Part shown: positions 3,212-52,177 of the stretch, piece by piece
Numbering within the stretch: the stretch's first letter is position 1
How the letters are laid out: the number at the start of each line of letters is the position of its first letter
From: a virus
Lineage: Duplodnaviria; Caudoviricetes
Reading direction: 5' to 3' (one strand)
Virus record (IMG/VR): IMGVR_UViG_3300047550_001246
Span: 1-56,160 of that record
DNA: 56,160 nt
The notes under the pieces: generated by a model
Told to the model about the DNA's origin: nothing
The model's input: the letters and a program-made list of their open reading frames with translations, nothing else
Database searches by the model: none
Translations under genes and position numbers: made by a program

Positions 3212-3859
3212 ATGCCAGCCGCAATGACCTTTACCAGTTTGCAGTCGGACATCCGCAACTACCTTGAGCGTGGCGGAGCGACGGATCCAATTGTCTTTGA
3301 GCAGATTCCGCGTCTCATTACGCTGGCTGAGCGTCGGATTGCGCGTGAGCTGAAGATCCAAGGTTTTCAGAATGTGGTCACGATGACCATGCAGTCTGAC
3401 GTTGCCGTGTATGCAAAGCCGGATCGGTGGCGCGATACCATCAGCATTAACTACGGCACCGGCACAGGCAACAACACGCGGGTTCAGGTCTATCCAAGAT
3501 CGTATGAATATGTGCGTGAGTATTGGCCAAACGAAACCGAAACCGACCCGCCAAAGTTTTACGCTGACTACAATTACAACTACTGGATCTTTGCTCCAAC
3601 GCCCGATGCGGCGTACCCGGTAGAGATTCTGTATTACGAACTGCCGCCGCTGTTGGATGATACGAATCAGACCAACTGGTTGTCGGAGTACGCGCCCAAC
3701 TTGTTGCTGTATGGGTCGCTTGTGGAGGCGACGCCGTTTGTGAAGGACGACCAGCGCGTACAGTTGTGGCAGTCCTACTACGACCGCGCTTTGGCGGCGT
3801 TGAATGGTGAAGACTTACAGAAGATCGTTGATCGGTCTACGAATCGTCGGGAGGCTTAA
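3212..3859 (+). CDS. Head-tail adaptor / tail tubular protein A-like
   Basis: Helical N-terminus (IPRLITLAERRI), FAPTPD..Y and NWL...PNLLLYGSL pattern; first gene of the tail module. Confidence 0.7.
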   Translation: MPAAMTFTSLQSDIRNYLERGGATDPIVFEQIPRLITLAERRIARELKIQGFQNVVTMTMQSDVAVYAKPDRWRDTISINYGTGTGNNTRVQVYPRSYEYVREYWPNETETDPPKFYADYNYNYWIFAPTPDAAYPVEILYYELPPLLDDTNQTNWLSEYAPNLLLYGSLVEATPFVKDDQRVQLWQSYYDRALAALNGEDLQKIVDRSTNRREA

Positions 3860-3861
3860 CA

Positions 3862-5058
3862 GTGCCTAGCTTTACTCAAACTTTCGGCGGAACGAACATC
3901 TATCCAAGTGATGTCTCGTACCGTTATGTGTCCCTGACGATTGATCAGGTGCTGGACTGGCCGCTAGAGACTGCGCCGTCAAATGATGTCGTGGCATCCA
4001 TTATGGATGTTAATGCGACGACGACCAGCCTTGTCATTACGATGCCGGATGCGCGGGATGCAAGTACCGGCGAAACGGTGTTATTTAATAACGTCGGTTC
4101 TAACACCTTTACGGTCAAGACCAGCACGGGCGTGCAAATTTGCGCACCCACTTCGGGCAGCACGTTTCAGATTTACCTGACGGACAACAGCACGGAGTCT
4201 GGAGCTTGGCGTTCGTTCCAATATGGTGCATCGGCTTCGGCTGCGAACGCGGCGGCACTTGCGGGTCTTGGGCTGAAGGCGATTGCGACGACGCTGAATC
4301 AGTCGGTTCCGGTCAGTACTTTTAGCACCACCTACACCGCTGCCACGAGTGACCGTGCTAAGGCATTGGTATGGACGGGAGGCGCAGGGACTCTTGCGTT
4401 TGATACTGCCCCTACTCTGGGCAACGACTGGTTTGTCAATGTTCGCAATAGCGGCACAGGCGATCTGACGCTAAACCCGAGCAGTTCAGAGACGATCAAC
4501 GGTGAACTGACTCTTGTGTTGTCTCCGGGTGACAGCGCAATCGTAGTTACAAACGGCGTACAGTTTTGGACGATTGGCTTTGGTCAGTCTGCTGTATACG
4601 CTTTTAGCTTGCTTCAGATTGATGTATCGGGCAGTGGAAATTACACGCTGTCAATTGCGGAACTGAACAAGACGGCTTATGTGTTTACTGGCACGCTGAC
4701 GGGTAATCGGGACATCATTGTTCCGACCACGGTGCAGCAATACTGGGTCAGCAATCAAACCTCTGGGTCTTATACGCTTGGAATGCGTACATCTGGTCAA
4801 GCCAGCCCCGGTGTCACGGTAGCAGCCGGTGCCCGAGCCATTTTGTACTGCGACGGAACAGATGTGGTGGATGCCGACACGGCAACGATTGCCATTCCGG
4901 TTACCGTGGCTCAAGGCGGAACTGGCGCAACAACGGCTTCTGGAGCAAGAACCAACTTGGGCGCAACGTCGATTGGTAACGCGGTCTTTACGGCTGCGAG
5001 TACTTCTGCGGCGCAGATTGCGCTGGGTCTTGACCCGATTGAAGGCGGTAGTTACTGA
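3862..5058 (+). CDS. Virion tail structural protein
   Basis: T/S/G-rich beta protein with a VAQGGTGATTASGARTNLG fibre motif; GTG start. Confidence 0.65.
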   Translation: MPSFTQTFGGTNIYPSDVSYRYVSLTIDQVLDWPLETAPSNDVVASIMDVNATTTSLVITMPDARDASTGETVLFNNVGSNTFTVKTSTGVQICAPTSGSTFQIYLTDNSTESGAWRSFQYGASASAANAAALAGLGLKAIATTLNQSVPVSTFSTTYTAATSDRAKALVWTGGAGTLAFDTAPTLGNDWFVNVRNSGTGDLTLNPSSSETINGELTLVLSPGDSAIVVTNGVQFWTIGFGQSAVYAFSLLQIDVSGSGNYTLSIAELNKTAYVFTGTLTGNRDIIVPTTVQQYWVSNQTSGSYTLGMRTSGQASPGVTVAAGARAILYCDGTDVVDADTATIAIPVTVAQGGTGATTASGARTNLGATSIGNAVFTAASTSAAQIALGLDPIEGGSY

Positions 5059-6668
5059 TGCCACTTCAGCCGGTCATCGTTCGCTCCGAACCCGGAATTA
5101 AGCGGGACGGAACGAAGTTTGAAGGTAACTTTTATGTTGACGGGCAATGGGTCCGTTTTCAACGTGGGTTGCCGCGTAAGATCGGTGGGTATCGCGCACT
5201 CCAGGATCGACTGGATGGCATCGCCCGTGGCATGCACATTCACAATCATAATGGTTATACCTATGTCCACATAGGTACGGCAGCGGGCGTGTTTCGTTTT
5301 CGTCTCAGCCAGAACGGACAATCCAGCATTGTTACCGATCGCACGTACAGCGGATACGTCGCCAACTCCGATAACCTTTGGCAGTTTGATGTGGCGTTTA
5401 ACACCACAAACAGTCAGAACGAAATTTTGGCTCATGCAGCGCCAAACATCGAAGACATCTCTTCAGATGCTGCGGGTCAGCTTTATCAAGGTTTTGATAA
5501 CGGAACGAGCGAGTTGGTCCCGGTTTCTGGCATTACCGTCTCTGGCGGTATCGTTGCCCTTGCTCCGTATGTGTTTGCGTATGGATCAGATGGCTTTATT
5601 CAATGGAGCCGCGCAGGGTACACGGATGACTGGTCCGGCGGCGATGCTGGTGAGGCGCGTGTTACGAGTCAAAAAATCGTTAAAGGATTGCCTCTACGAT
5701 CCGGTGCAGGTAACGCGCCGTCTGGACTCTTCTGGTCATTGGATTCAGTCATTCGTGCGACCTACGTTGGCGGTGCCCCGGTTTTCCAGTTTGACACCAT
5801 TACCTCGCAGTCAAGCATTCTCTCTTCGCAGAGCGTGATTGAGTACGACGGTATTTACTTCTGGTGCGGTGTTGACCGTTTCTTGATGTTTAACGGTGTC
5901 GTGCGTGAAGTGCCGAACTCGCTGAACCTGAACTGGTTCTTTGATAACCTAAACTACTCTCAGCGCCAGAAAGTATTTGCTTTTAAGGTTCCGCGCTGGG
6001 GCGAAATCTGGTGGTGTTACCCGAGGGGTAATGCAACTGAGTGTACGCATGCCGTCATTTACAACGTGCGTGAGAACACATGGTACGACACGGAACTCCC
6101 GAACGGCGGACGCTCTGCGGGTCAATATGCGCAGGTGTTTAGTTCACCCCTCGTAGTAGGTGTGATTGATACCGAAACGGTTCAATTCCGCGGAACGCAA
6201 GATACAGAGCGTCGCGTAACAGAAGACGATCAACCGCGAATCATTAATGACCCAAAAGGTTATGTGGTTTGGCAGCATGAATACGGAACGGATGAAATTA
6301 ATGGCGACAGGATTCGCCCCATACAGTCTTACTTTGAAACGGCGGATATGTCTTTGGTTGCGGCACCTGAGCCACAAAACATGGCTGTTCGTGTTGAGTA
6401 CATGGAGCCAGATTTTGTTCAGTCTGGAAACATGACCGTACAAGTTACGGGTAGAGCAAATGCTAAAGCAGGCGAAGTAACAAGCGATCCTCAAACAATT
6501 TATGCAACGCTAACGGATCGTCAGCAGCAGCTTGTCTACTTCCGCGAGATTCGTCGAGAAATGCGCTTTCGATTTGAGAGCAACACGGTTGGCGGGAACT
6601 ACCAGATGGGGCAGATCATTGCCCATATCGAACCGGCTACGGGTACGGTCCTTGGAGAGAATCCATGA
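5058..6668 (+). CDS. Tail nozzle / stabilisation protein (P22 gp10 / tubular protein B-like)
   Basis: 536 aa beta-rich protein with PGIKRDGT, VRF..G.P.KIGG and EIWWCYP motifs; sits before the ejection proteins. Confidence 0.7.
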   Translation: MPLQPVIVRSEPGIKRDGTKFEGNFYVDGQWVRFQRGLPRKIGGYRALQDRLDGIARGMHIHNHNGYTYVHIGTAAGVFRFRLSQNGQSSIVTDRTYSGYVANSDNLWQFDVAFNTTNSQNEILAHAAPNIEDISSDAAGQLYQGFDNGTSELVPVSGITVSGGIVALAPYVFAYGSDGFIQWSRAGYTDDWSGGDAGEARVTSQKIVKGLPLRSGAGNAPSGLFWSLDSVIRATYVGGAPVFQFDTITSQSSILSSQSVIEYDGIYFWCGVDRFLMFNGVVREVPNSLNLNWFFDNLNYSQRQKVFAFKVPRWGEIWWCYPRGNATECTHAVIYNVRENTWYDTELPNGGRSAGQYAQVFSSPLVVGVIDTETVQFRGTQDTERRVTEDDQPRIINDPKGYVVWQHEYGTDEINGDRIRPIQSYFETADMSLVAAPEPQNMAVRVEYMEPDFVQSGNMTVQVTGRANAKAGEVTSDPQTIYATLTDRQQQLVYFREIRREMRFRFESNTVGGNYQMGQIIAHIEPATGTVLGENP

Positions 6669-6911: not shown

Positions 6912-9900
6912 ATGAGTCGTTTTTACACCTATGGTGACATCCCTGACGTAAGAGGGGTGTTTTACGAAGAAGGACCCAGTGGTCTTGGTTTTTTTTCTGA
7001 ACCATCGTTTGACTACTCACCTGTATTTTCGCAGCCTTTAGAAGATGCTCCTTTAAGTTACTTTCAAGATGATCGACAACTAGAGTTGGATCGTCAGGCT
7101 GAAGAGAGACGCCAGTTTGAACTTTTTGAAGCACAGCGCAGACAGGCTGAGCAAGAATATGCTCGTCGCCTTGAACAAGAGCGTGCAATTGAACTTGCTC
7201 GGCAACAACAGATTGCGCGTGAGCAAGAGGCTGCGCGACAAGCAGAGGCTGCGCGTGTTGCTGAAATGGTCCGTCAGCAGGAGATGGCTCGACAAGAAGC
7301 ATTAAGACAGCAAGAGATGGCTCGTCAAGAGGCATTAAGACAACAAGAGATTGCTAGACAGCAGGAAATGGCTCGCCAAGAGGCTGCGCGTAGAGCAGAA
7401 GAAGCCCGTATGGCAGAAGAGGCCCGTAGGGCAGAGGAAGCGCGTCAAGCAGAACAACAGAGACAGGCTGAACTAAGAATAATTCAAGAGCAAGAAAATG
7501 CTCGACGCGCTGAAGAGACTCGTCGCGCCGAGGATTTAAGGCGCGCCGAACAGCAGCGTATTGCTGAGGAAACTCGTCGTGCAGAGCAGGCCCGTCTTGC
7601 TCGTGAAGCACAACTAGCGCGAGAAGCCGAGGTTGCTCGTAGAGCAGAAGAGGAAGCAACCAGTCGTCGTCAAGCCGAGGCTGCAAGAAGGGAGCAGGAG
7701 CGGGTTGCTACTGAGCAAGCGCGTCTTGAGCAAGAACGGGTTGCTGAAGCGCAACGTCAAGCTGAGGTTCAGCGTCAAGCCGAATTGCAACGTCAAGAAG
7801 CAGAGCGTCAGGAAACGGCTCGTCGTCAAGCTGAAATGGCAGAGATGCAACGTCGTCAAGCGGAGCAAGAAAACTCTATGCGTGTTGAGCAAGAGCGTCA
7901 AGCACAACTTCAGCGTCAGCAAGAGCTGGCTGATTTGCAGCGTCGTGAAGAGGCTCGTAGGGCAGAAGAGGAGCGAGCAAGAATTCCAACTCCTCAAGAA
8001 GAAGTTGCTATTTCACAACCGCCGCTTAGTCAGGTTGGAGATGAGTTAATTCCGCAAGCTCCTCCAGAAGATCCAATGCGTGGGGTTAGTGGTCCGGAAA
8101 TGTTTCGTTGGTCAGACGGCACATATCACTTTAGACCTGAAGAATCTGGTCAAAGAACTCCAATTGATCAGCTTCCTGACTATTATCGTCGCTTAACTGA
8201 AGAGGCTTTGGCTAAGTCGCCTCTGCAAGATATTCCAGACTATATGCGTCAAAATCTTGTAGGGCCGTCTCGCACTCCTCCCGAAATGCCTGAAGAATTA
8301 ATTCCCACTCCTCGCGGAGAAAATGTTCCGATTTCACCGCTTACCTCGCTGCCTAGTGGCCCAGACCCAATTAGCGACTCTTGGGGATATCGTGGTGAAA
8401 ATGTTCCGGTAGCGCCGCTTGAAAGTTTACCCGGACCGGGATTGGCTGGAGATGATGGAAGACTTCCGCGTGGGGAAGATGTTCCGGTAGCGCCGCTTTC
8501 ATCGACAGTTGATTTTATTAGAAGTCAACTTGGTGAGCAGCCTCAAGCCCCGTCTTCACCGCTTGCTGATACGGCAGCGGCTGCGCCAAGCATAAGTGAT
8601 TGGACCGCGCTTTCTGAACAAGCAACTGCTGAATTTATTAACTCGCTTTCTCCTGAAGATCGTCAAGCGTTGTTTGACGCAGACATGGCGGGAATGGCTC
8701 GTGGAAGTCCTCTTAAGGAAAGCCCGCTGGCTTTGAACTTTAGTGGCGCTGGTTTTGGCGGCACCTACTCCTTAAGTCCGCAGGCGCTCTTTACCGAAGG
8801 CACCGGAGGCGCTGACTTAGAGACGGGAAGTCTTTACGCACCGCTTAGCAGCCCGTCTATAGAGCGCGGCAAGGAATTGCAAAAGCAACGCGAAGCCTTT
8901 GTTACTTCAAAGGCCGGAGAGATGCCCGGTGCCGCTGATCTTAAGAAAGCAGCGGAAGCAATGCAGGCTGAGGCTAAGAGAGAAATTTCTGCTGAAGAAG
9001 AAAAGTATCTTGCCACGCTTCCGCAGCGCCGAGAGTTGTCTAGCCTCCTTAAGCAAGGAAAGTTTGCTGAAGCATTTAAATATGCTGCTGACAACGGCGT
9101 AACGGAACTCATTACAAACCCGGCTGAGCTTAAGAATCTTCGCGGTGCGTTTTCAAAGGATGAGTTAGGTAAATTCTTCTCTTCCATGCCAGAGGATTTG
9201 AAACCTATCTTCGCACCGTCCGGTCTGCAAGATGAAAAGTTTAATTTCGATCCGCAGAAAGGCGTTGAGTACAGCGTAGGTCAGTGGCGCGGTGAAACAG
9301 GATTCCCGCTTGTCAGTTCTGCCTTTATGGCAAAGAAAGACAAGACGGTTGAGAATCTTGCCAAAGTTGCTGGTCTTGCGATGCTGACCGCTGGTTTTGC
9401 ACCGGGGTTACTTGGCGGAGCGCCTGCGGGTGGTGCTGCTGGAGCTGGCGGCGCTGGAGCAGGGGCTGGTGCAGCGGGAGCGGGTGCTGCTGGGGCTGGT
9501 GGCGCGCTAAGCGCTGCTGAACTTGCTAGCATTCTTCCTGAAATAGTAATTACGTCTAGCAAAGTAAGCCCTTTGTTAACTGCTGCTGGAGCTGCTGGCG
9601 CTGGTCTTGCTGCCTCTCAACTTGGCGGCGGGGCTGCGGCTGCGCCTACGGCATCGACTGCTCCAACCACGCCTGTTGATCCACTTCAAGAAATTCTTGT
9701 CACCGGATCAAAAGTTCCCCCCGCTAGTTTAAGCGCAATCGGCCCCGGCACTTTGGCATCTTTAAACTTGATGCGCGGTGTCAGTGATATTCCGGTAGAC
9801 ATTTACGGAAGACCTGTTGAACCGCCTCCGGCAGAAGCTCCGCCTGAAACGCCGCCAGAAGAGCCGCTTAAGGAAATCCTTGTTACCGCACCTAAACCTA

Positions 9901-10829
9901 TTTCTGCCTTAGATATTGCAGCGGGTGCTACGGTGCCTGCGCTTTCTAAAACAATTGCAGACATGGGGTACAGAGCGCCTGCTTTTGAAGGAACTCCGAT
10001 TGAGAATATCCCTGAAGTTGTTGTTCAAGGAACCGCTCCAAAGCCGATTGACTTAACTTCGGTTGTTGGTCCCTTGACTGCTGCTCAACTAACGCAGGGC
10101 TTTACACAGCCTCAAGTTGATCCAACAACGGGTGAACTTAAAGAGCCGCCTAAGACGCAGCAGGAGTTGGATGCTATTGAAGAAGCCTTGAAGACCGGCA
10201 AACCAATACCGGGAACTGCAAGCGTTGTTGATAAAATTAAGGACGCTTACGATACTTACAAAAAAATTAGGCAAATTTCGAGTTTACTTGGCGGTCTTGG
10301 TGCAGCCGCTGCTGGGTATAAAAAGCCAGTTACTACAGTAACAACCCCCACAGGCCCTAGTGGTGCGCTGCCCAAGTATGAATTAAAGCGCACGCAGCTC
10401 CAGCCTCAGATTGACTACTATCGCTATGGCCTTGGTCCTGAAGCAAGGTTTTTTTCGGACGTTCTTAATCCGCCTCCGCCGCCAGAGCCGCCGCAACTTC
10501 CGCCCTCTAAGCCACCGGGTGATGAGCCGGTCTTTGCCGCTGGTGGTCTGACGGGTTATGCCAGGGGCGGTAGCAAGAAATCCCGTTACGTTGCTGGTCC
10601 CGGCTCTGGGCGGGATGACAAGATCCCGGCGCTGCTAAGCGATGGGGAATACGTGATTGATGCTGAAACGCTGGCTCTTTTAGGGGACGGCTCGACCAAA
10701 GAGGGTGCTCGGCGCATGGATAAGTTCCGTGCTAAGATCCGTAAGCACAAGGGTCGTGCCCTATCGCGTGGCCGGATTAGTCCAAACGCAAAGTCGCCCG
10801 ATAAGTATATGGGCGGAGGGTTGACCTGA
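6912..10829 (+). CDS. Large putative ejection (DNA-injection) protein
   Basis: 1305 aa: ~300 aa E/R/Q helix, Pro-rich linkers, hydrophobic G/A segment, four E[IV][VL][VI][TQ] motifs and a C-terminal GPGSGRDDKIPALLSDGEYV domain seen in phage internal/tape-measure-like proteins. Confidence 0.7.
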   Translation: MSRFYTYGDIPDVRGVFYEEGPSGLGFFSEPSFDYSPVFSQPLEDAPLSYFQDDRQLELDRQAEERRQFELFEAQRRQAEQEYARRLEQERAIELARQQQIAREQEAARQAEAARVAEMVRQQEMARQEALRQQEMARQEALRQQEIARQQEMARQEAARRAEEARMAEEARRAEEARQAEQQRQAELRIIQEQENARRAEETRRAEDLRRAEQQRIAEETRRAEQARLAREAQLAREAEVARRAEEEATSRRQAEAARREQERVATEQARLEQERVAEAQRQAEVQRQAELQRQEAERQETARRQAEMAEMQRRQAEQENSMRVEQERQAQLQRQQELADLQRREEARRAEEERARIPTPQEEVAISQPPLSQVGDELIPQAPPEDPMRGVSGPEMFRWSDGTYHFRPEESGQRTPIDQLPDYYRRLTEEALAKSPLQDIPDYMRQNLVGPSRTPPEMPEELIPTPRGENVPISPLTSLPSGPDPISDSWGYRGENVPVAPLESLPGPGLAGDDGRLPRGEDVPVAPLSSTVDFIRSQLGEQPQAPSSPLADTAAAAPSISDWTALSEQATAEFINSLSPEDRQALFDADMAGMARGSPLKESPLALNFSGAGFGGTYSLSPQALFTEGTGGADLETGSLYAPLSSPSIERGKELQKQREAFVTSKAGEMPGAADLKKAAEAMQAEAKREISAEEEKYLATLPQRRELSSLLKQGKFAEAFKYAADNGVTELITNPAELKNLRGAFSKDELGKFFSSMPEDLKPIFAPSGLQDEKFNFDPQKGVEYSVGQWRGETGFPLVSSAFMAKKDKTVENLAKVAGLAMLTAGFAPGLLGGAPAGGAAGAGGAGAGAGAAGAGAAGAGGALSAAELASILPEIVITSSKVSPLLTAAGAAGAGLAASQLGGGAAAAPTASTAPTTPVDPLQEILVTGSKVPPASLSAIGPGTLASLNLMRGVSDIPVDIYGRPVEPPPAEAPPETPPEEPLKEILVTAPKPISALDIAAGATVPALSKTIADMGYRAPAFEGTPIENIPEVVVQGTAPKPIDLTSVVGPLTAAQLTQGFTQPQVDPTTGELKEPPKTQQELDAIEEALKTGKPIPGTASVVDKIKDAYDTYKKIRQISSLLGGLGAAAAGYKKPVTTVTTPTGPSGALPKYELKRTQLQPQIDYYRYGLGPEARFFSDVLNPPPPPEPPQLPPSKPPGDEPVFAAGGLTGYARGGSKKSRYVAGPGSGRDDKIPALLSDGEYVIDAETLALLGDGSTKEGARRMDKFRAKIRKHKGRALSRGRISPNAKSPDKYMGGGLT
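7272..7385 (+). repeat. 33-nt tandem repeats encoding RQQEMARQEAL
   Basis: RQQEMARQEAL occurs twice, followed by RQQEIARQQEMARQEA; DNA copies are nearly identical. Confidence 0.85.
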
Positions 10830-12223
10830 TGAGCGTCGTAGACTTTCTTTTTGAGGGCAAGGCCCCGGCTCCGGTCACGCTGACCGGGACATCAGCTGTT
10901 CAGCTTCCCGAGTGGTATACCCAATACACCACCGACATGCTGGGCCGCGCTCAGGCCGTTGCAAATCTGCCTTATGCTGCGTATCCGGGGCCGCGTATTG
11001 CGCCATTTACCCCGACCGAGCAAACCGGCTTTGAGGCCACCAAAGCCGCTGCGGGGGCGTATCAGCCCTTTCTCCAGCAAGCCGGTTCAACTTTAGGACA
11101 GGCAGGAGCGATAAGCGGCCTGGGCGCGGCTGAGCCTCTCTTTACACAAGCCGCCGGAATGATGGGTGCGCCTGCCGCTGCGCCGTTCTTGACGCAGGCT
11201 GGCGGGATGTCCGCCGCCGCCGCAGCGCAGCCCTTTCTTGCGCAGGGCATTTCACCGATTAGCCGAGCAGGCGAGGCTTCTGCTGTATCAGCAGCGCAAC
11301 CGTTTTTAAGTCGCGCTGGCCGTGCGTTCCCGCAGGCTGTTCAGGAGTACATGAGTCCGTACATTCAAAACGTAGTTGAGCAGATCGGTGATATTGGTGT
11401 ACGTCAACTGCAAGAAAAGTATTTGCCGGAAATTGGTCAAGAGTTTATTCAAGCCGGTCAATTTGGTCCGGGTCCCGGCAGCAGTCGCATGGGTGAGTTT
11501 GGTGCTCGCGCTTTACGCGATGTGCAGCAGTCTATATTGGCTGAGCAAGCCAAGGCGCTACAAGCTGGGTACGGGCAGGCTGCGGATATTTTCGGAAGAG
11601 ATGTCGATCGCTTGACGCAACTTGCTGGAACGGTTGGTCAATTGAGTACTGCCGACTACAACAGAATGCTCGAAAGCGGAGCGCGCATTGCAGATGTTGG
11701 TGCAAAAATTGGCCAGCTTACGGCAGAAGATGCTCAGCGTCTTACCGAGATTGGCAAGGCAACTGGCGCGCTTACTCAGCAAGATGCCGCCAATCTTGCA
11801 AGAATTGCGGAATCTCGAGGACAGCTGTCGCAGCAAGATGCCGCTAATCTTCAGTCGCTTGCTTCGAAGTATTTGGGAATGGGCGAAGCTGCGCAATCCA
11901 TGGGGATTACCGGAGCAGAAGCCATTACCGGAGTTGGCGCAAAAGAACGCGCCATGCAGCAAGCCAATTTGGATCTTGCTTATCAAGACTTCTTGCGTCA
12001 GGAAGGATATCCAGAAGAAAGAATCAAGTTTCTTTCCAATGTGCTTAGCGGGGTTCAGATTCCAAAGACCGAGATTACAACTCAACAAACTATTCCGAAG
12101 GAAAGCGAACTTACGACGGGTCTTTCTGAAGCTGCGAATACCTACAAGGTTCTTGATGAAATTCTCAAGGGATCGACAGGTAAAGACATTGGTGATCTTT
12201 TAAGAAGATTATTTGGTGGGTAA
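10829..12223 (+). CDS. Putative ejection / DNA transfer protein
   Basis: A/Q/G-rich, with YMSPY, GQFG..SR and Q..LD..YQ.F....YP motifs typical of podovirus internal proteins. Confidence 0.7.
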   Translation: MSVVDFLFEGKAPAPVTLTGTSAVQLPEWYTQYTTDMLGRAQAVANLPYAAYPGPRIAPFTPTEQTGFEATKAAAGAYQPFLQQAGSTLGQAGAISGLGAAEPLFTQAAGMMGAPAAAPFLTQAGGMSAAAAAQPFLAQGISPISRAGEASAVSAAQPFLSRAGRAFPQAVQEYMSPYIQNVVEQIGDIGVRQLQEKYLPEIGQEFIQAGQFGPGPGSSRMGEFGARALRDVQQSILAEQAKALQAGYGQAADIFGRDVDRLTQLAGTVGQLSTADYNRMLESGARIADVGAKIGQLTAEDAQRLTEIGKATGALTQQDAANLARIAESRGQLSQQDAANLQSLASKYLGMGEAAQSMGITGAEAITGVGAKERAMQQANLDLAYQDFLRQEGYPEERIKFLSNVLSGVQIPKTEITTQQTIPKESELTTGLSEAANTYKVLDEILKGSTGKDIGDLLRRLFGG

Positions 12224-12229
12224 TAAGCT

Positions 12230-13168
12230 ATGGCACTTCCAATGAGCAGCATGCTTTCCGCAACAGGTCTTTCTGATCCGCGCCAAAAGATGCGCGAGGA
12301 TTTGATGCGCATGTACGGCGATTACATTCTCTCTGGCCCCAAAGCAACGGTACCTGCTGTTAAGCCAGCATCTGCTTCTGCCAGCACGGAGCCAGGGTGG
12401 GGCGATATCACTGCCGCTGAAGATGAAGAGGAAGAGATCAGCGAAGACAAAGGACAGATCGTAGAGGTTGACGAGGATGAAGAAGAAGCGACTGCTCCAG
12501 CGCAGCCGTTGGACGCTGCTGACGAAGAATTGGAAGCAGCCGCAGAAGAGGCAACAGAAGAGCCAGTTTCAAGCGCTGACACTTACGAAAGTGAGATATT
12601 AAAGCTTCTTGAAGAGGCTAAAGGAAAACTTCTCCAACCAAAAAAGCTTAGCATTGCAGACATTCTTGGCGCGGGAACGATGCGTCGATCTGCTCAGTTG
12701 ATTGGTGAAACTGAGAAGTTAAACGAAGAGCGACAGATGAAAGCGCAGGAACTTGCGCTTGATATCTTAATGCGCAAGTCGAAGATTGAAAAGGAACGCG
12801 AGGCTGCGCAGGCACTGGCTAAGTATCGACAAGGATTGATTGATGTTCGCCGAGCGGCTGCGGAAAAAGGTTCGCAAGATCCGACGCAAGTACGTGCTGA
12901 TCGAATTGCTGCAAAGGCCATGTTTCCAGATCTTCCTGAAGATCAGGCTTATGCAAAGTATCTTCGAGACGTTAAGTATCGACAGCGACCGGCTTCAGCT
13001 CAGCGACCCACTGAGTCTCAGATGCTTGCCTCTTTAAGAGCGAAGAAAGCTCGCGGTCAACCAATGACTGTAGAGGATGAGCAGCTTCTCAAGGTTCTTG
13101 AAGACAAAATAAAAAGAGAAAGCGCGCTTGAAGAGGCAATGAGAAGAAGCCTTGGGTTAGATAAATAA
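12230..13168 (+). CDS. Putative internal virion protein
   Basis: Acidic stretch plus helical region; lies between ejection-type genes. Confidence 0.55.
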   Translation: MALPMSSMLSATGLSDPRQKMREDLMRMYGDYILSGPKATVPAVKPASASASTEPGWGDITAAEDEEEEISEDKGQIVEVDEDEEEATAPAQPLDAADEELEAAAEEATEEPVSSADTYESEILKLLEEAKGKLLQPKKLSIADILGAGTMRRSAQLIGETEKLNEERQMKAQELALDILMRKSKIEKEREAAQALAKYRQGLIDVRRAAAEKGSQDPTQVRADRIAAKAMFPDLPEDQAYAKYLRDVKYRQRPASAQRPTESQMLASLRAKKARGQPMTVEDEQLLKVLEDKIKRESALEEAMRRSLGLDK

Positions 13169-13179
13169 CGAGGGCTACG

Positions 13180-16100
13180 ATGCCTAACTTTACGGTCATC
13201 GGTCCGGACGGAAAGAAGTGGAATGTTCCTGCACCTGAGGGGTCAACCCAAGAGGATGCAGACGAATACGTTCTGAAGTCCAAGTACGGCATCAGCAAGG
13301 CAGAGGCAAAGTCTGCTCCTGCTCCTGCGCGTGTAGATTTTATGCAACAAGGTCGGGCTGATGCGCGGCCTTCTCTTGCTCCGCCTCCAACGCCGCGACC
13401 GGCACCGGAGCCGGAGCGCCCTGCTGCTACGCGCCGTGGACCTGCTCCGCTCAGTCTGACTTCGCTGATTACTGAACCTGCGATGACAATGGTGTCTGGC
13501 ATCGCAAGTTTGCTGCCGTCGTATGCGCGCGGCCTGTACGGGCTTGCTAGAGGAGAGTCTGATCCCGAAGCGGCTGCGGCAATTCGCGAAACGCAGCGGA
13601 AACTAACATACGAACCGCGTACAGATATCGGCAGACTTGGGTTGGAGACGATTCGTCCGGTTGCGGAAGTGCTATCTGTTCCGTCTCAATTGATTGGTCG
13701 CGGCACCGAAGCAGTCACCGGCTCCAAGGTTGCTGGCACAATTGCGGAAGATGTGCTTGGCCCAGAGGTTTTGATCCCTGGTGCGGTGGGTGTGCGCGCT
13801 TTGGTTAAAGGTCGTCGCGCTCCGGAAGTGCCGTCAACGGCAATCGTTCCCGAAGAACCCGCTCCGCCCTTAACGTCCCCAGCGCCAGAGGTTCCAGCGG
13901 TCAAGCCTAAAAAAGGTAAGAAGCCAAAGGCATCGACGTTGCCGGTGGTTAAATCTCCGGATCAAGTCAACACGCAGATTACGAAATCTGAGATTGAACT
14001 GTCACCAGACCCAGAACTGGAGGCTGCGCGTATTGCTGCGCGCGATCTGCCGGAGAACGTACTACCTGGCGTGAAAGCCGGGGAACGTATCGCGCCTACC
14101 GTCGCAGCGCAGCGCAACATTACGAACGCTGCAAAGGAACTTCTCGAGACGGGAGAAGTCAAGATCGATCCTAGTATCCCGCCGTTCTTGCAAGTTGCAA
14201 ACCTGCTTCAGTCAGGTCGTTTGCGACCGGATGTGTATGTAGACATTCTAAAGCGCAACAATCTGACTCCGGAAGAGTTTGCGCAATCTTACGTGCAAGA
14301 AGTTTCTCAGGCTGGTCGCACGTTGCAAATCCTGAGCGACTTTAGAAAGTTTACCCGAGAAGCAGAAGATGCAGTCGAGGGCATCAACACGCAGGCTGCT
14401 GGTGGAATTGTTGACGATCGCGGCATCTTCCGTCGCATTGATGACATACGACGAGGATTGATGGTTTCGCAGCTTTCAACTGCGGTTCGTAACGGAACCG
14501 TTGGTGTTGGGCGATCTATTCTGGATACTGGCACAAAGTTGATTGACTTTGGCATTCAAAAAGCTACTGGCCGAATAAATCCAGATATGCCGCTTACTAC
14601 GGCAGGAGATGCCTTCGGTCAGATTCTTAATCTTTTAAACCCGAAACAGTCGTACGATCTTACAAAACGCATCTTAGAAGTTCGCCCGAAAGAATACGAT
14701 GAAATGTTCCGTCAGTACAACGCTGGCGTTTCACTAGGCGGCAAGTCTGGTGGCATTCTTGGCGCAGCGGAAAAGGGTGTGTATGCGCTAAACGTCTTTA
14801 ACCGATTCCAAGACAGCGTAATGCGTAGCGCAGTTTTTGCGGACTCGGTTGAGCGCGGCATGAAAGCGCGTGGACTTGACTTCCATGAAACGATGAAGTC
14901 TGGTCGCATGGGTGATATCCCGGAAGACATCGTACAACGTGGCGTTCAAGACGCCATGGAGTTCACGTTTTCAAATAAGCCAAAGACTAGAACAGAGCAA
15001 GCAGTTGTCACTGCGATTGATAACATTCCACCGCTTGCAATTGCTATTCCTTTCCCGCGCTTCCTGATCAACTCAATGCGCTTTATGACGGAGTACAGTC
15101 CTGCGGGTCCGCTGCATTTGCTGAGCAAGAACGAGCGGGCTGCGCTCAAGTCCGGTGATACACGGCTCCTTGCAAAGTCTCTGGCTGGATCGGGTTTGTT
15201 GTATGGCGCATACGCGCTTCGTGACTCTGAGTATGCTGGCGAGAAGTGGTACGAGCTCAAGGGCGAAGATGGCAAGACCATCGACATGCGCCCGTATGCT
15301 CCGTTCTCTGCATACCTTTTTGTCGGAGACTTAATCAAGCGCAATATCGACGGCACGCTTTACAGTCTCAAAGGGACTGATATTACGGAGGCGCTTGTTG
15401 GCATTGGTTCTGACAAGACGGGCTTGCAGTTGGTTGATGGGGTGCTTGGCGAGATGCGGGAAGACCCGGAGTATGGCGCGAAGAAGGCAAGCGATTACTT
15501 TGCAAAGCTTGGCGGCGAGTACGCTGGTACGTTCTTCATTCCGTTCCAGCAGATCCGCGATGTCATGGCGGAGTTTGAACCAGAAGAAGCCAAGATTCGC
15601 AGAGTTACAGAGGAGCCGCTGACTGCTCCGATTACATCCAAACTTCCTGGCGCGGGTCGTGAATTGCCCGAGTCGTTCTCGTACACCAACCCGCAGCCTC
15701 GGGTGCGTGAGTCTCCGGCGCTTCGCCAGGTTACGGGTGTCACCCAGATTTCGCCCAAGAACGAAGCTGAAAAAGAAATGGACCGGCTTCAGATCAAAGA
15801 GTTTGAAATCTTCAAGCGAACGGGCAACCCGAATGCGGATCGACTTATTGCGTCGATGACCTCTCGCCTCGTTGATGACCTAGTCTCAAAGATGGTTCAA
15901 AGCGAGAACTACACAAGGCTTTCCAATGATCAGAAGAGAGTTGTATTAAAAAAATTACTTTCCGAGGCTAATACTTTTTCTAGGAATCAAGCTATCAATC
16001 AAATGCCTGAAGCTTTTATTGAGGAAAAGATTAAAAGCTCTTTGAGTAAAGACGAGCTGCGCATGCTTGAAGAAGCGGGGATGAAGTTTCCAGAAAAGAA

Positions 16101-16449
16101 GGCTAAAGGTGGTCTTATAACTTCCGGAAACATTGATGTATCAAAACTTCCTGCCGTGCGTAACCCGGATGGCTCTTACAGCACCGTGCGGTCTATGGGT
16201 ATTGAGATGGATGGAAAGCATTATCTAATACCCAAGGTCGTCAACGGTCGTGTGGTGTCAGATGATGAAGCCTTCAATCACTTTATAAAGACCGGCAAAC
16301 ATCTCGGTATTTTTAGTAGCCGAGCTGATTCTGATGCTTACGCAAAACAACTTTCTGAAGCGGAAGCTAAAAGAATTGGTAAAGCTAAAGGTGGTGCTGC
16401 GTACACACCACAAGAAGAACTCTTGCTAAGAAGATACGCAAGCAGGTAG
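13180..16449 (+). CDS. Large internal virion / ejection protein
   Basis: 1089 aa helical protein with an N-terminal V.GPDGK...V.APEG module and a C-terminal domain flanked by KAKGG; last large gene of the tail module. Confidence 0.7.
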   Translation: MPNFTVIGPDGKKWNVPAPEGSTQEDADEYVLKSKYGISKAEAKSAPAPARVDFMQQGRADARPSLAPPPTPRPAPEPERPAATRRGPAPLSLTSLITEPAMTMVSGIASLLPSYARGLYGLARGESDPEAAAAIRETQRKLTYEPRTDIGRLGLETIRPVAEVLSVPSQLIGRGTEAVTGSKVAGTIAEDVLGPEVLIPGAVGVRALVKGRRAPEVPSTAIVPEEPAPPLTSPAPEVPAVKPKKGKKPKASTLPVVKSPDQVNTQITKSEIELSPDPELEAARIAARDLPENVLPGVKAGERIAPTVAAQRNITNAAKELLETGEVKIDPSIPPFLQVANLLQSGRLRPDVYVDILKRNNLTPEEFAQSYVQEVSQAGRTLQILSDFRKFTREAEDAVEGINTQAAGGIVDDRGIFRRIDDIRRGLMVSQLSTAVRNGTVGVGRSILDTGTKLIDFGIQKATGRINPDMPLTTAGDAFGQILNLLNPKQSYDLTKRILEVRPKEYDEMFRQYNAGVSLGGKSGGILGAAEKGVYALNVFNRFQDSVMRSAVFADSVERGMKARGLDFHETMKSGRMGDIPEDIVQRGVQDAMEFTFSNKPKTRTEQAVVTAIDNIPPLAIAIPFPRFLINSMRFMTEYSPAGPLHLLSKNERAALKSGDTRLLAKSLAGSGLLYGAYALRDSEYAGEKWYELKGEDGKTIDMRPYAPFSAYLFVGDLIKRNIDGTLYSLKGTDITEALVGIGSDKTGLQLVDGVLGEMREDPEYGAKKASDYFAKLGGEYAGTFFIPFQQIRDVMAEFEPEEAKIRRVTEEPLTAPITSKLPGAGRELPESFSYTNPQPRVRESPALRQVTGVTQISPKNEAEKEMDRLQIKEFEIFKRTGNPNADRLIASMTSRLVDDLVSKMVQSENYTRLSNDQKRVVLKKLLSEANTFSRNQAINQMPEAFIEEKIKSSLSKDELRMLEEAGMKFPEKKAKGGLITSGNIDVSKLPAVRNPDGSYSTVRSMGIEMDGKHYLIPKVVNGRVVSDDEAFNHFIKTGKHLGIFSSRADSDAYAKQLSEAEAKRIGKAKGGAAYTPQEELLLRRYASR

Positions 16450-39122: not shown

Positions 39123-39330
39123 AGACTGGACCGCGCAGGAATGGCGCACCAAGTCGGGCAAGCCGTCGAGTAAAACTGGCGAGCGATATCTACCGGCTGC
39201 TGCGATCAAGGCACTTTCTCCGCAGGAATACGCGGCAACGACGCGAGCGAAGCGCGAGGGCAAAGCGAAGGGCAAGCAGTTTGTAGCGCAGCCGAAAGCG
39301 ATAGCAAAGAAGACCTCGCGTTATCGATGA
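39091..39330 (+). CDS. Small basic protein (DUF5872-like, C-terminal half)
   Basis: Q.SL..WT.Q.W.TKSG......GERYLP..A...LS..EYAAT..AK......KQFV.QP. Confidence 0.75.
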   Translation: MPLKPSQRSLKDWTAQEWRTKSGKPSSKTGERYLPAAAIKALSPQEYAATTRAKREGKAKGKQFVAQPKAIAKKTSRYR

Positions 39331-40829
39331 ACCAGCCTGCTAAAGGGACCCCAGCGGGGACCCCTCCCCCGCTGGACATGAATGATCCGTTGATCAAGGA
39401 GCTGAACAAGCTTCCAACGGACGATTTGATTGCGTATGAGAACCGGCTCAAGTGGGCGAATCAGAGACACAAGCACCAGAAGCCACCGAAGGGCGAGTGG
39501 ACAGTGTGGTTGATGCTGGCCGGAAGAGGCGCGGGTAAGACGAGAGCCGCAGCCGAGTGGGTGTGGTGGCAGGCGTACAAAACGCCGGAGACGCGCTGGT
39601 TGGTGTGTGCACCCACAGCAGCGGACATTCGCGATACGTGTTTTGAGGGAGATTCCGGGCTGATTTCTGTGATGCCCGAGCGTGTTGTTCAAGAGTACAA
39701 CAGGTCGCTGTCAGAGATTATTCTCAAGAATGGCTCGTTGATTAAGGGCATTTCAGCGGAAACCCCCGACCGGCTGCGTGGTGGTCAATGGCATGGTGCG
39801 TGGTGCGATGAGTTAGCAGCCTGGCAGTACGATCAAGAAGCGTGGGACATGATCATGTTCGCGCTACGTTTGGGTAAGCATCCAAGGATCGTAGCAACGA
39901 CGACACCGAAGCCGAAGGCGCTGATCAGAGACTTGATCGGGCGTGATGGGTCGGATGTACACGTTACACGGGCATCGACTTACGAGAACATTGCGAATCT
40001 GGCTCCGACTTTTCAGCAGCAATTGCTGAAGTTTGAAGGTACGACGCTGGGTCGTCAGGAGATCCATGCGGAAGTTTTGAACCCTGAAGAGCAGGGCATT
40101 ATCAAGCGCAACTGGATCCAGCTCTGGCCAGCGAAGAAGCCATTACCTGCGCTTGAGCACATTGTGATGAGCTTGGATACCGCTTTCACGGAGCAGACTC
40201 GGGACAAGAAGACTTCGGATTCGGACCCGAGTGCGTGTGTGGTGCTCGGGCTTTTTTACGAGAATGAGAAGCCGAACATCATTTTGCTTGATTGTTGGGA
40301 AGACCGGCTCGGGATGCCGGAGCTCATCAAGAAGGTCAAGCGCGAGATGGAGGTGTACTACGGGGATGATGAGCAGAAGCCCATGATCAAGCCCAAGTTT
40401 GGTCCATCTCGGATGATTAATACGGGCAGAAAGCCGGACACGATCGTGATCGAAGACAAGGGCAGCGGGATTTCGCTCCGTCAGATGCTGGCTCGGGAGG
40501 GCATCGTTGCGCATGCATATAACCCCGGAAAGGCATCGAAGCTGACCCGGTTGCACATGGTGAGTCATTTATTCGCGGGTGGGATGGTGTGGATGGTGGA
40601 GAGCGAGAAGCGTGCGAAGCAGGTGCGCTCTTGGGCGGAGCCGCTCGTGTACCAGCTCTGTTCGTTCTCGGGTGAGGGGACGATCAAGCACGATGACTTG
40701 ATGGATGCCTGCACCCAAGGTTTACGTTTCCTTGCTGATAAAGATATGATAAGCGTGAGTAAGCCTAAGCCGTTGCAGCCGAGGCTCATTGTGAACTCGC
40801 GCCCGAGGGGAAATCCGTATGGCATCTGA
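39327..40829 (+). CDS. terL: Terminase large subunit
   Basis: HQ adenine motif, AGRGAGKT Walker A, WCDE Walker B, TTTP, SLDTA and HDDLMDA nuclease motifs. Confidence 0.95.
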   Translation: MNQPAKGTPAGTPPPLDMNDPLIKELNKLPTDDLIAYENRLKWANQRHKHQKPPKGEWTVWLMLAGRGAGKTRAAAEWVWWQAYKTPETRWLVCAPTAADIRDTCFEGDSGLISVMPERVVQEYNRSLSEIILKNGSLIKGISAETPDRLRGGQWHGAWCDELAAWQYDQEAWDMIMFALRLGKHPRIVATTTPKPKALIRDLIGRDGSDVHVTRASTYENIANLAPTFQQQLLKFEGTTLGRQEIHAEVLNPEEQGIIKRNWIQLWPAKKPLPALEHIVMSLDTAFTEQTRDKKTSDSDPSACVVLGLFYENEKPNIILLDCWEDRLGMPELIKKVKREMEVYYGDDEQKPMIKPKFGPSRMINTGRKPDTIVIEDKGSGISLRQMLAREGIVAHAYNPGKASKLTRLHMVSHLFAGGMVWMVESEKRAKQVRSWAEPLVYQLCSFSGEGTIKHDDLMDACTQGLRFLADKDMISVSKPKPLQPRLIVNSRPRGNPYGI

Positions 40830-46316: not shown

Positions 46317-47231
46317 ATGGCAGTCCCAATGCGTAGTACTGACTTTCGTTCCATCGTTGAGCCTATTCTTAACGAGGCTTTCGATGGCATTTATGACCAG
46401 CGTGCTGACGAGTGGAAGCAAGTATTCGTCCAGCAGCAGGGCATTCCCCGCAACTACCACGAAGAGCCGGTTCTGTACGGATTCGGCGCTGCTCCGGAAC
46501 TTCCGGACGGCACCCCGGTCACGTATGACGCTGGCGGCGTGCTCTTCTTGCAGCGTTACGTCTACAAGGTCTACGGCCTTGCATTCGCGCTCACGAAGGT
46601 ACTCGTGGAAGACGGTGACCACATCCGTATCGGCCAGACCTACGCCAAGCACTTGGCGCAGTCGCTGATCGAAACGAAGGAAACCCTCGGCGCTAACATC
46701 CTTAACCGCGCTTTCACCTCCGGCTACAACGGCGGTGACGGTGTGACGCTTGTTGCGACGAACCACCCGATTGCTACGGGTACGTTCAGCAACCAGCTCA
46801 CGACCCCGGCGAACCTGTCCCAGACCTCGCTTGAGCAGATCCTCATTCAGATCCGCAACGCTGTTGACAACAACGGCAAGCGCATCCGTTTGAACCCGGA
46901 GAAGCTCGTTGTGTCGCCGTCGAACGTGTTCCAAGCGGAAGTGCTCCTCAAGAGCGTTCTCCGTACTGGCACGGCTGACAACGACATCAACCCGGTGAAG
47001 TCGATGGGCCTTCTCGCTGGCGGTCAGGCCAACCTGTCGCGTTTGACCTCGACCACCGCTTGGTGGGTGAAGACGGACGCGCCGGAAGGTCTGAAGCTGA
47101 TGATGCGTCGTGGCCTTGAGAAGAGCATGGAAGGTGACTTCGAAACCGACTCCACGCGCTTCAAGAGCACGGAGCGTTATGCGTTCGGATGGACCGATCC
47201 ACGCACCGTGTTCGGCACACCTGGCGTGTGA
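46317..47231 (+). CDS. Major capsid protein (HK97 fold, Mu gpT-like)
   Basis: 304 aa, strong AAGGAGG RBS and codon bias; GFG.A...DG, GGDG..L...HP and EGDFET....K..ERY.FGW.DPR motifs; followed by a terminator. Confidence 0.9.
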   Translation: MAVPMRSTDFRSIVEPILNEAFDGIYDQRADEWKQVFVQQQGIPRNYHEEPVLYGFGAAPELPDGTPVTYDAGGVLFLQRYVYKVYGLAFALTKVLVEDGDHIRIGQTYAKHLAQSLIETKETLGANILNRAFTSGYNGGDGVTLVATNHPIATGTFSNQLTTPANLSQTSLEQILIQIRNAVDNNGKRIRLNPEKLVVSPSNVFQAEVLLKSVLRTGTADNDINPVKSMGLLAGGQANLSRLTSTTAWWVKTDAPEGLKLMMRRGLEKSMEGDFETDSTRFKSTERYAFGWTDPRTVFGTPGV

Positions 47232-49345: not shown

Positions 49346-49510
49346 ATGGGTGATTACAAGCGTCAGCATCAAATGCCTGCAAGGTATTTTGAGAGTTGGG
49401 CTAGAGATGATCAGTACGTGGAGCGCGGGCAGCGGTTCAAACCGAAGAAGCGCAAGGCAAAGGAATTAGACGATCGCCGTTATCGGCGGGAGCAAGAAAA
49501 TGGGCGTTAA
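49346..49510 (+). CDS. Small basic hypothetical protein (54 aa)
   Basis: Not in the ORF track. [18 protein letters not shown]...; fills the gap between flanking genes. Confidence 0.45.
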
Positions 49511-51181: not shown

Positions 51182-52177
51182 ATGGCGACTTCCGGTACGG
51201 TTTCGACAACTCAGTTTACGACTAGGCAGGTCATCGACCATGCCTACAGGCGTTGTCGTTTGGGTGCGCAACAGATCACCTCTGAGATGATCGACATTGC
51301 GAACGACCAGCTTTACCTAATTCTTTCCAATCTTGCTAACCGTGGCGTTCAGCTCTGGTGTATTGAGCGTTTGATATTGCCGCTTTACGAGGGGCAGGGT
51401 GCGGTCACGTTACCGATCGGAACGGTGGATGTGCTCAATACCAACCTGCGAACGCTGCTGGAATCGACCGGAACTACGGCTACGACATCCACGACCTTTC
51501 AGGTTTATAACGTCGATGGTTTGACGGTAACGACGGTTGGCATCAAGTGGTCCGCAACTTCGCAGCCGTATGTGGTTGAGATGTCCAATGACGGCATCAC
51601 TTGGACTGCCGTTGATACGATGGAGTACACCAACGATCCGGATGAGGTCGCTGGCGAGTGGAGCTGGGTCGATACTGAAGTCCCAGAGTCTGCGGATTAT
51701 TTTCGCGTTCGTGTAACGAGCGGAACCCTTTCGGCCTCGGAAGTTTACTTTGGGAACACGCCCAACGAGATCCCTATTGCGCGATTGAATCGCGATGACT
51801 ATACGGCGCTGCCCAACAAATCTTTCCTTGGCCGTCCTTTGCAGTTTTGGTTTGACCGTCAGATCAACCAGCCGATTATGCGTCTTTGGCCAGTTCCGAA
51901 CGCGGCAGCGGAAACGCAGCAGATCATCGCGTGGCGGCATCGTTACATTCAGGATGTTGGCACGATGACGCAAGAGCTGGACATTCCGCAGCGTTGGTTT
52001 GATGCGATTGTGGCGATGTTGGCGTCAAAGCTTGCAGAAGAGACTCCGGAAGTCGATGCAAATCTGATGCCGATCTTGGAGGCAAAAGCGGAGAAGGCGC
52101 TGGCTCAAGCAGAGAACGAAGAGCGCGATAACTCTCCAATTTACTGGACTCCGAATCTCAGTATGTATACGAGGTAA
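51182..52177 (+). CDS. Head-tail adaptor-like protein with an inserted beta domain
   Basis: MATSGT, I..AY.RC, L...ANRG..LW, R..Y...PNK...GRP.QFW.DR, LWPVP and P.RW motifs. Confidence 0.7.
   Translation: MATSGTVSTTQFTTRQVIDHAYRRCRLGAQQITSEMIDIANDQLYLILSNLANRGVQLWCIERLILPLYEGQGAVTLPIGTVDVLNTNLRTLLESTGTTATTSTTFQVYNVDGLTVTTVGIKWSATSQPYVVEMSNDGITWTAVDTMEYTNDPDEVAGEWSWVDTEVPESADYFRVRVTSGTLSASEVYFGNTPNEIPIARLNRDDYTALPNKSFLGRPLQFWFDRQINQPIMRLWPVPNAAAETQQIIAWRHRYIQDVGTMTQELDIPQRWFDAIVAMLASKLAEETPEVDANLMPILEAKAEKALAQAENEERDNSPIYWTPNLSMYTR

Follow-up and report, generated by a model that had tools for sequence, protein, structure and literature searches.

Four strand-like repeats in a large phage protein

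The window analysed here is the whole of an uncultivated virus record (IMGVR_UViG_3300047550_001246; Caudoviricetes), 56,160 bases long and with a completeness rating of 100%. Its closest cultured relatives are the 'Riverwalk' phages RW, RLK, KcrB and GB2A of Caulobacter vibrioides. One open reading frame (ORF) of the plus strand (positions 6912..10829, ORF call) codes for a protein of 1305 residues, putatively an internal virion (ejection) protein or a tape-measure-like protein. It carries four short repeats similar to the TonB box of TonB-dependent outer-membrane transporters, of which BtuB and FhuA are examples.

All features of this protein are given on the plus strand. Repeat 1 is LPEIVITSSK (residues 875-884; 9534..9563; E877 at nucleotide 9540), repeat 2 is LQEILVTGSK (residues 925-934; 9684..9713; E927 at nucleotide 9690), repeat 3 is LKEILVTAPK (residues 986-995; 9867..9896; E988 at nucleotide 9873) and repeat 4 is IPEVVVQGT (residues 1033-1041; 10008..10034; E1035 at nucleotide 10014). 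Successive repeats are spaced by 50, 61 and 47 residues. The sequence PVEPPPAEAPPETPPEEP stands just before repeat 3, and repeat 4 is followed by APKPIDLTSVVGPLTAAQLTQGFTQP, which forms the second half of a repeat unit. The strand heads a longer unit, overlooked by a first-pass annotation made from the sequence alone, in which it is followed by KPxPIDLxxVGxLTAAQLxQGFTQP (window positions 10035-10115, and likewise the related locus L003, 3493-6489).

The four motifs sit exactly where this first-pass annotation had placed them, and their occurrence is not random. With the pattern E[IV][IVL][IV][TQ][SGA], 20,000 shuffles of the whole protein gave no copy in 19,923 cases and a single copy in 77. 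Shuffling of residues 850-1060 (again 20,000 times) gave no copy in 19,969 cases and a single copy in 31; thus, no shuffle yielded more than one copy, against the four observed. The pattern is absent from every other open frame of at least 150 residues in the six frames of the window.

The same annotation had described the motifs as following a long helix, a hydrophobic segment and a G/A run, and the layout of the protein bears this out. After an N-terminal region (residues 1-55), residues 56-355 (7077..7976) are composed of 74-88% E, Q, R and A when counted in blocks of 50 residues, with no proline and a net charge of about zero. From its composition, this segment looks like a long charged helix, either a coiled coil or a single alpha-helix, and its ~300 residues would span ~45 nm if fully helical. 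The GB2A homologue is much shorter and devoid of this charged segment. Next come an acidic, proline-rich linker (residues 356-560; 7977..8591; 10-24% P by composition) and a mixed region that is kept in relatives (residues 560-815). The top hydrophobic segment, LAKVAGLAMLTAGFAPGLL (residues 816-834; 9357..9413), has a Kyte-Doolittle score of 1.55 over 19 residues, just below the usual threshold of 1.6, and its sequence makes it a possible membrane-inserting helix. It is followed by the G/A run (residues 835-870; 9414..9521; G+A 50-54%), and a hydrophobic G/A-rich stretch is also present in the sequences of relatives. The protein ends with a basic, conserved C-terminal domain (residues 1203-1305; 10518..10826; A.GGL...GPGSGRDDKIPALLSDGEYVIDAETLALLGDGS...), the signature of the family.

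The spacers between the motifs had been described as flexible and P/A-rich. This is correct for blocks 901-1000, which contain 14-24% proline, whereas motif 1 lies in G/A-rich sequence instead (G+A 50-54% across residues 801-900). AlphaFold2 modelling of residues 840-1305 with a 31-row alignment gave a mean predicted local distance difference test score (pLDDT) of 50, and values of 31-65 in the repeat region with no packed strands or domain; burial of the motifs in a fold is thus not predicted. Taking low pLDDT as disorder, the repeat region is predicted to be accessible and disordered. No signal peptide was seen by inspection at the N-terminus of the protein. It matched no Pfam family, and its sole PHROG match was a weak one to PHROG 6090, 'tape measure' (residues 1216-1258; E = 1.1e-4). 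A sequence search for relatives among solved structures found none at E <= 0.001, all matches being at chance level (E of at least 0.099).

Conservation of the strand in related proteins

An exhaustive, profile-free search with residues 800-1305 (E <= 0.001) retrieved 5370 representatives, most of which have only the C-terminal domain in common. The signature of this domain, IPAxLSDGEYVIDAETxALLGDGS, is invariant in a 19-row alignment, with 31 invariant columns. The strand SDGEYV[IV]xA is common to long prophage proteins, whether the host is Gram-negative or Gram-positive (loci L034-L078, from named genomes). Its presence in both types of host envelope indicates a general trait of such tail or ejection proteins, unrelated to TonB.

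Comparison of the motif with shuffled controls among homologues, a check that the first-pass annotation had called for, gave a clear excess. The strict family motif, [DE][IVLM][IVLM][IV][TQ][GAS], was found at 85 sites in 55 of the 150 best representatives, where shuffles averaged 1.27 sites and never exceeded 5. When the pattern was relaxed to an alternating one with a basic residue at +7, it matched 153 sites in 62 of the 150 (shuffle expectation 1.67), and one or the other form is present in 34 of the 40 closest relatives. Every strict site lies 233-570 residues from the C-terminus. The number of copies varies from 0 to 6 in the family, the relative L003/P0003 having six copies of [LI].EVVVTGSK.

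In the 31-row alignment, whose proteins are 30-79% identical to the segment of the window, the strand is kept at four homologous positions (LxE[VI]V[VI][TQ][AG].K) and the linkers vary. Conservation of the strand among freely varying linkers fits selection on the strand itself. The logo of the 85 strict sites reads L-[DE]-E-[IV]-V-V-[TQ]-[GA]-[SA]-[RK]-P, its commonest residues being L at -2 (35 of the 85 sites) and E at position 0 (69 of the 85). The motif comes in distinct flavours, namely PL.E..VT in the clade of the window protein and [NT]TV.E in GB2A, L014 and L016-L018.

Similarity to the TonB boxes of bacterial transporters

We compared the phage motif with transporters from five bacterial genomes (G001 to G005) that were reached through matches to the family. 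The sample comprised 30 loci coding for Plug domains. G001 is a metagenome-assembled genome (MAG) labelled Caulobacter sp.; all its remaining regions upstream of plugs were added, which gave 27 peptides in total. De novo motif discovery in these peptides yielded TEVEAIVVTAQ[KR]; in 26 of the 27, it lies 13-29 residues ahead of the plug, which is the established position of the TonB box. The transporter motif and the phage logo agree in character over ~10 consecutive positions.

For a reciprocal test, a 10-mer matrix was built from the 85 phage sites only, and a zone of 8-60 residues upstream of the plug was set beforehand. The single best match of this matrix fell inside the zone in 18 of the 30 transporter frames (~700 residues each), where we estimate that ~2-3 would be expected by chance. 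The proportions per genome were 7/7 for G001, 4/4 for G002, 3/8 for G003, 1/7 for G004 and 3/4 for G005. Three further best matches, of the LPPVTVTAP type, were at -68 to -76, beyond the zone.

At the DNA level, all four matches to E-x-V-V-V-T-[GA] in G001 are directly upstream of a plug. The 40 genomes of the same bacterial family as G001 contain 171 matches, as opposed to 38 for the reversed control. When 30 of these were fetched (one per genome), 18 had a Pfam Plug domain starting 13-19 residues downstream; the others comprised one match inside a transporter barrel, seven in other or unassigned proteins and four in short frames. Thus, this peptide is largely a TonB-box marker in bacteria. 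Taken with the de novo motif, the logo and the reciprocal test, the likeness that the first-pass annotation had drawn to known transporters proves to be an objective one.

G001 also has a canonical exbB-exbD-tonB operon (locus L109, 1495-3236), whose TonB includes a run of 14 prolines, and seven TonB_C matches genome-wide. A TolA/TolB-type strand was tried as another candidate and found no support. Assuming that the N-terminal strand of mature TolB is the TolA-binding strand, the phage matrix had its best match there in none of five TolBs, with all scores at or below 3.3.

Agreement with the box flavour of a known host could be assessed for GB2A. The boxes of G001 carry a T-x-V-[DE] prefix, which the repeats of the window do not have. 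When the 16,873 six-frame positions of an 18.3-kb structural region of GB2A were scanned with the G001 12-mer matrix, the homologue of the window protein held the two best matches, TPVDEIVVTPSQ with a score of 13.2 and TTVDPVVVNPPQ with a score of 10.0. The sites of G001 itself score 12.3-21.2 in 25 of 27 cases (leave-one-out median 15.5), and only 7 of 20,000 shuffles of the GB2A protein reached 13.2. At the sequence level, the GB2A box thus matches the extended box of Caulobacter type, as predicted by host-matched mimicry, for this single phage-host pair.

For the window protein, the resemblance is to the core of the box. With a 9-mer core matrix from G001, three of its repeats rank 1st (repeat 2, the best match), 4th (repeat 3) and 7th of 30,404 positions, and three sites scoring at least 5.9 occurred jointly in 38 of 20,000 shuffles. 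In the comparison with the host consensus, which had also been suggested, the GB2A copy agrees with the flavour of its host genus, and the copies of the window match the matrix of G001 at the core only. Co-folding of the TonB C-terminal domain of G001 (residues 140-240, 29-row alignment) with a 34-residue segment containing repeat 3 gave ipSAE values of 0.16 and 0.12, where the mark is 0.32; run without controls, these values are evidence neither way.

Gene context and features of the phage

The ORF of the 1305-residue protein adjoins tail genes in the structural module, among several large ORFs. Upstream of it on the plus strand, PHROG matches identify a virion gene of PHROG 2941 (3212-3859), a tail-fibre-like gene (3862-5058) and a virion structural protein gene of PHROG 3287 (5058-6668). 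The three ORFs that follow it on the same strand (464, 312 and 1089 residues; 10829..16449) had no recognised family in our scans; their position alone makes them candidates for co-ejection. Around the repeat-carrying ORF, Caulobacter phage GB2A has its structural genes in the same order, downstream ORFs included. In two distant relatives, the homologue is encoded between a gene annotated 'stabilization protein' and one annotated as coding for a 'DNA transfer' or SLT-domain protein. Gene position and these annotated neighbours point to a putative virion location of the 1305-residue protein.

The 1089-residue ORF (13180-16449) has two terminal AKGG motifs, which resemble the A.GGL that precedes the C-terminal domain of the 1305-residue protein. 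BLASTP detected no similarity between its product and either the 'lytic tail protein' of GB2A or the 'DNA transfer protein' of phage DSL-LC04.

Elsewhere in the window are the genes of the large terminase (TerL; 39327-40829), the portal (40819-43338) and a Mu-gpT-like capsid protein (46317-47231). Over 97% of its length, TerL shares 48.9% identity with that of the Riverwalk relatives. The window also encodes a primase, tail-fibre-like proteins and two 'virion structural' PHROG families. No tRNA gene was found in it, and no tail-tube or sheath family was found among the subset of its ORFs that was scanned. The ORFs at the two ends (55151-56158 and 1-1443) both run off the record and both match tail-fibre PHROGs; they are probably a single gene cut where the record was linearised. 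The ORF at 49500-51116 has a DUF6496 match and that at 51182-52177 a sub-threshold match to F5/8 type C (discoidin); both possibly code for surface or decoration proteins.

The strong matches of the protein family to genome contigs correspond to phage contigs binned in MAGs of many phyla. Given this scatter, bin membership is unreliable for inferring hosts.

Proposed function of the repeats

We favour, as plausible and a little short of probable, the proposal that the repeats are TonB boxes presented in the periplasm by the ejected protein, as TonB-dependent colicins and pyocins do. As far as sequences can tell, the repeats are equivalent to real TonB boxes, conserved and amplified; a virion location, ejection into the periplasm, binding to TonB and any mechanical work are inferred.

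In what would be a podovirus-like relative of the Riverwalk phages, the 1305-residue protein would act as an internal virion (ejection) protein. Its four disordered repeats would lie between a hydrophobic G/A-rich, possibly membrane-active segment and the C-terminal domain, each of them headed by an edge strand, L-x-E-[IV]-[ILV]-V-[TQ]-[GAS]-x-K, that would mimic the TonB box of host transporters. As the protein has no signal peptide, it would meet the periplasmic domain of TonB only after expulsion through the tail at infection. TonB would then capture the boxes by beta-strand augmentation, and this capture would couple the unfolded protein to the ExbB-ExbD-TonB motor driven by the proton-motive force, much as the single box does in colicin B and pyocin S2. 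With boxes in tandem, 47-61 residues apart, capture could be repeated.

A more specific version, which we consider doubtful, is that the Ton motor acts as a winch that reels the protein out hand over hand by means of the tandem boxes. The tail would open a path through the outer membrane, the unfolded protein would enter the periplasm, and TonB would grip successive boxes. Pulls driven by the proton-motive force would draw the protein from the capsid, and the remaining ejectosome and the front end of the genome would come along with it. Co-evolution of the boxes with the TonB-box flavour of the host would be expected.

The idea of delivery through tandem TonB boxes, raised by the first-pass annotation, thus draws on sequence likeness, conservation, predicted disorder and gene context. 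A number of observations weigh against it, the first of which concern the window itself. Its copies match the G001-type matrix only at the core, as judged from sequence. With the full 12-mer, the best score in the window protein is 3.1, a value reached by 2264 of 5000 shuffles, and the best site of the protein comes only 14th in the six-frame scan. For the core 9-mer, 939 of 20,000 shuffles attain the score of the best single site (7.8), and motif 4 scores 3.6. In addition, nothing in the TonB boxes of transporters corresponds to LTAAQLxQGFTQP, the second half of the repeat unit.

Further such points come from the family, many members of which do not have the motif. The strict form is missing from 95 of the 150 representatives, and the distribution of the motif in the sequences indicates that it marks a sub-clade, not the whole family. 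Even a relaxed form is present in only 7 of 24 MAG-binned members, and L022, the member binned with G001, is devoid of it. At the equivalent place, phage DSL-LC04 has five copies of GMDLSSAQGTLGGPSYA, and L005 (3767-6367) and L006 (3757-6357) repeat QEVKVEAP...PPVVTSPID five to six times, without the T-[GA]-x-[KR] part; the only copy in MW202545 is doubtful. The strand motif was found in none of 45 prophage proteins that have the short C-terminal motif, whether their hosts are Gram-negative or Gram-positive. As it is absent from both groups, the contrast between the two types of host is uninformative.

The specificity of the motif is also limited. In bacteria, 12 of the 30 sampled E-x-VVVT[GA] matches are not TonB boxes, and the phage-site matrix gives the invariant SDGEYV[IV]xA strand scores of 4-6.5 (10.5 in one case), proteins of Gram-positive hosts included; this matrix is not fully specific. 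Lastly, the label of putative ejection protein agrees with the structural block and with the ejection-type neighbours in two distant relatives, whereas homology to characterised ejection proteins was not detected with Pfam, PHROG, solved structures or BLASTP of the downstream ORF. The available passages of PMC11053796 contain no virion data on the Riverwalk phages.

Alternative explanations

The strands might dock a different partner by beta-augmentation, either a portal, tail or core protein of the phage as particles assemble, or a different host protein in the periplasm or a membrane, and their likeness to TonB boxes would then reflect the shared needs of edge strands. We regard this as rather unlikely, while acknowledging that several observations fit it. 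Alternating V-x-V patterns are generic for edge strands, and the strands of relatives include variants that have diverged from TonB boxes (EVKVEAP and PPVVTSP in L005/L006, and EVVVEGTKP and EVTVETER). The moderate scores of the SDGEYV[IV]xA strand, also in Gram-positive hosts, and the 12 bacterial sites that are not TonB boxes point the same way. However, the agreement with TonB boxes reaches positions that are not generic, with a hydrophobic residue at -2, acidic residues at -1/0, T at +4, G/A at +5, S/Q at +6 and R/K at +7. The outcome of the reciprocal test (18/30), the Caulobacter-specific T-x-V-D prefix in GB2A and the negative result with TolB also speak against this reading.

Alternatively, the region could be a fast-evolving repeat spacer without a specific partner, whose role would be to determine length or flexibility, like that of the repeats in tape measures. 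The similarity to TonB boxes would then be accidental and spread by duplication. Internal duplication inflates the counts of sites, and the 85 sites are thus not 85 independent events. The copy number ranging from 0 to 6, the fact that 'tape measure' is the only PHROG label touching the protein, and the unrelated tandem repeats found at the same place (those of DSL-LC04 and L005/L006, and PPAATVIGG in L008) would also suit a spacer. Against it stand the strand kept at four homologous positions in proteins 30-79% identical whose linkers are free to vary, and the existence of independent flavours, one of which matches the boxes of a known host. We consider this explanation unlikely, and less likely than docking to another partner.

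The first-pass annotation had also raised the possibility that the protein titrates TonB. The boxes would bind and occupy TonB after entry, which would shut down uptake and so keep out phages and bacteriocins that depend on TonB, rather than help delivery. The sequence evidence for mimicry of TonB boxes all fits this equally well, and a periplasmic TonB-box pentapeptide reportedly inhibits TonB-dependent processes. A cell contains hundreds of TonB molecules, whereas a virion holds few copies of an internal protein. The gene is located in the structural block and not among early genes, and for exclusion it would be simpler to produce a protein with a signal peptide inside the infected cell, whereas none was seen in the 1305-residue protein. 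TonB-box peptides have been designed against TonB as a proposed antibiotic target, according to the accessible parts of PMC9841981, which can be counted in favour of titration. We found no support specific to this possibility and judge it improbable.

Least likely of all, and in our view very improbable, is that the L-x-E heading each repeat serves as a cleavage site for a head-maturation protease, which would cut up the protein inside the capsid; T4-type prohead proteases cleave behind [LI]-x-E. The logo does have L at -2 and E at 0 as its most frequent residues, processing of internal proteins occurs in several phages, and an essential prohead protease cleaves proteins during SPN3US head assembly (PMC10052503, from the portion available); conservation nevertheless extends eight residues past the E, which a P3-P1 specificity does not explain, and L occupies -2 in only 35 of the 85 sites. 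No protease was recognised in the window, where three ORFs between portal and capsid genes have no recognised family, and the matches of the capsid protein to 'protease' PHROGs span only the capsid part of fused families.

Comparison with known systems

The repeats share with the TonB boxes of transporters (Plug, PF07715) the same pattern of residues over ~10 positions in an extended stretch, predicted to be unstructured in the phage protein, and relatives of the window protein have IEEVVVT[GA] in common with real boxes. Unlike transporters, the phage protein is devoid of a plug or barrel and has four to six tandem boxes rather than one. They are located in the C-terminal half of a protein made in the cytoplasm without a signal peptide, and each is followed by an LTAAQLxQGFTQP element.

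The bacteriocins are the closest functional parallel. According to the available sections of PMC10994204 and bioRxiv 10.1101/2021.05.11.443673, pyocin S2 and colicin B each have a TonB box of their own within a disordered N-terminus, and force linked to the proton-motive force unfolds and imports the toxin. The same sections describe import as involving a first TonB event that opens the transporter and a second one in which TonB binds the box of the toxin, and report that colicin B can carry single-stranded DNA along. In both the toxins, as described there, and the phage, where this is a prediction, a foreign protein offers its own TonB box from a disordered region, with an acidic/hydrophobic pair before the box. 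However, the box of the toxins is single and at the extreme N-terminus, and entry is through a transporter whose plug is opened by TonB. On the phage side, the boxes are internal and in tandem, the route would consist of the tail and an ejectosome, and what is carried in would be a virion protein, perhaps with the genome as well. These toxins and the phage protein are not homologous in sequence.

The ejection proteins of podoviruses (T7 gp14/15/16, P22 gp7/16/20 and N4 gp51/52) resemble the window protein in being encoded right after tail genes, as a large protein in a run of large ORFs. The window protein has a hydrophobic segment, and the neighbours of its relatives are annotated 'stabilization', 'DNA transfer' or 'transglycosylase SLT domain'. 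In contrast, those proteins have no detectable homology to the window protein, and we know of no T7, P22 or N4 ejection protein that carries TonB boxes.

The nearest protein from a cultured phage is GB2A gp065c, which has homologues in RW, RLK and KcrB and is annotated 'tail length tape measure protein'. Its C-terminal domain is 45.6% identical to that of the window protein over residues 1168-1303, and it has the same succession of a G/A-rich stretch, P/T-rich linkers with strand motifs and the C-terminal domain. It differs in its length of 580 residues and in having two to three motifs of T-x-V-D-E-I-V-V-T flavour, and its remainder could not be aligned with the window protein by tblastn.

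Infection by phages T1, phi80 and H8 needs the host Ton system, which is ascribed to the TonB box of the receptor itself and to its energised state, not to a box on a phage protein as proposed here. The accessible portions of papers on T5 and FhuA likewise deal with the box of the receptor. The literature searched, which left most subscription journals out of reach, yielded no phage virion protein described as having its own TonB box, in agreement with the first-pass annotation.

Implications for phage entry

Piracy of the TonB box is established for bacteriocins. By analogy, it would occur here on a virion protein, with the box multiplied in tandem. How the large internal proteins of podoviruses, and then their DNA, cross the periplasm, and which energy source they use, is a question that a virion protein with host-matched tandem TonB boxes would make accessible to direct experiment, since cultured relatives infect C. 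vibrioides, a laboratory organism. The winch version, if true, would explain in molecular terms how short-tailed phages power the passage of unfolded internal proteins through a narrow channel. If the boxes do bind TonB, compatibility with the TonB of the host would be a new determinant of host range, and a class of phage resistance through ton mutations that act independently of the receptor would find an explanation. The flavour of the boxes would also constitute a sequence signature from which the hosts of uncultivated phages might be predicted.

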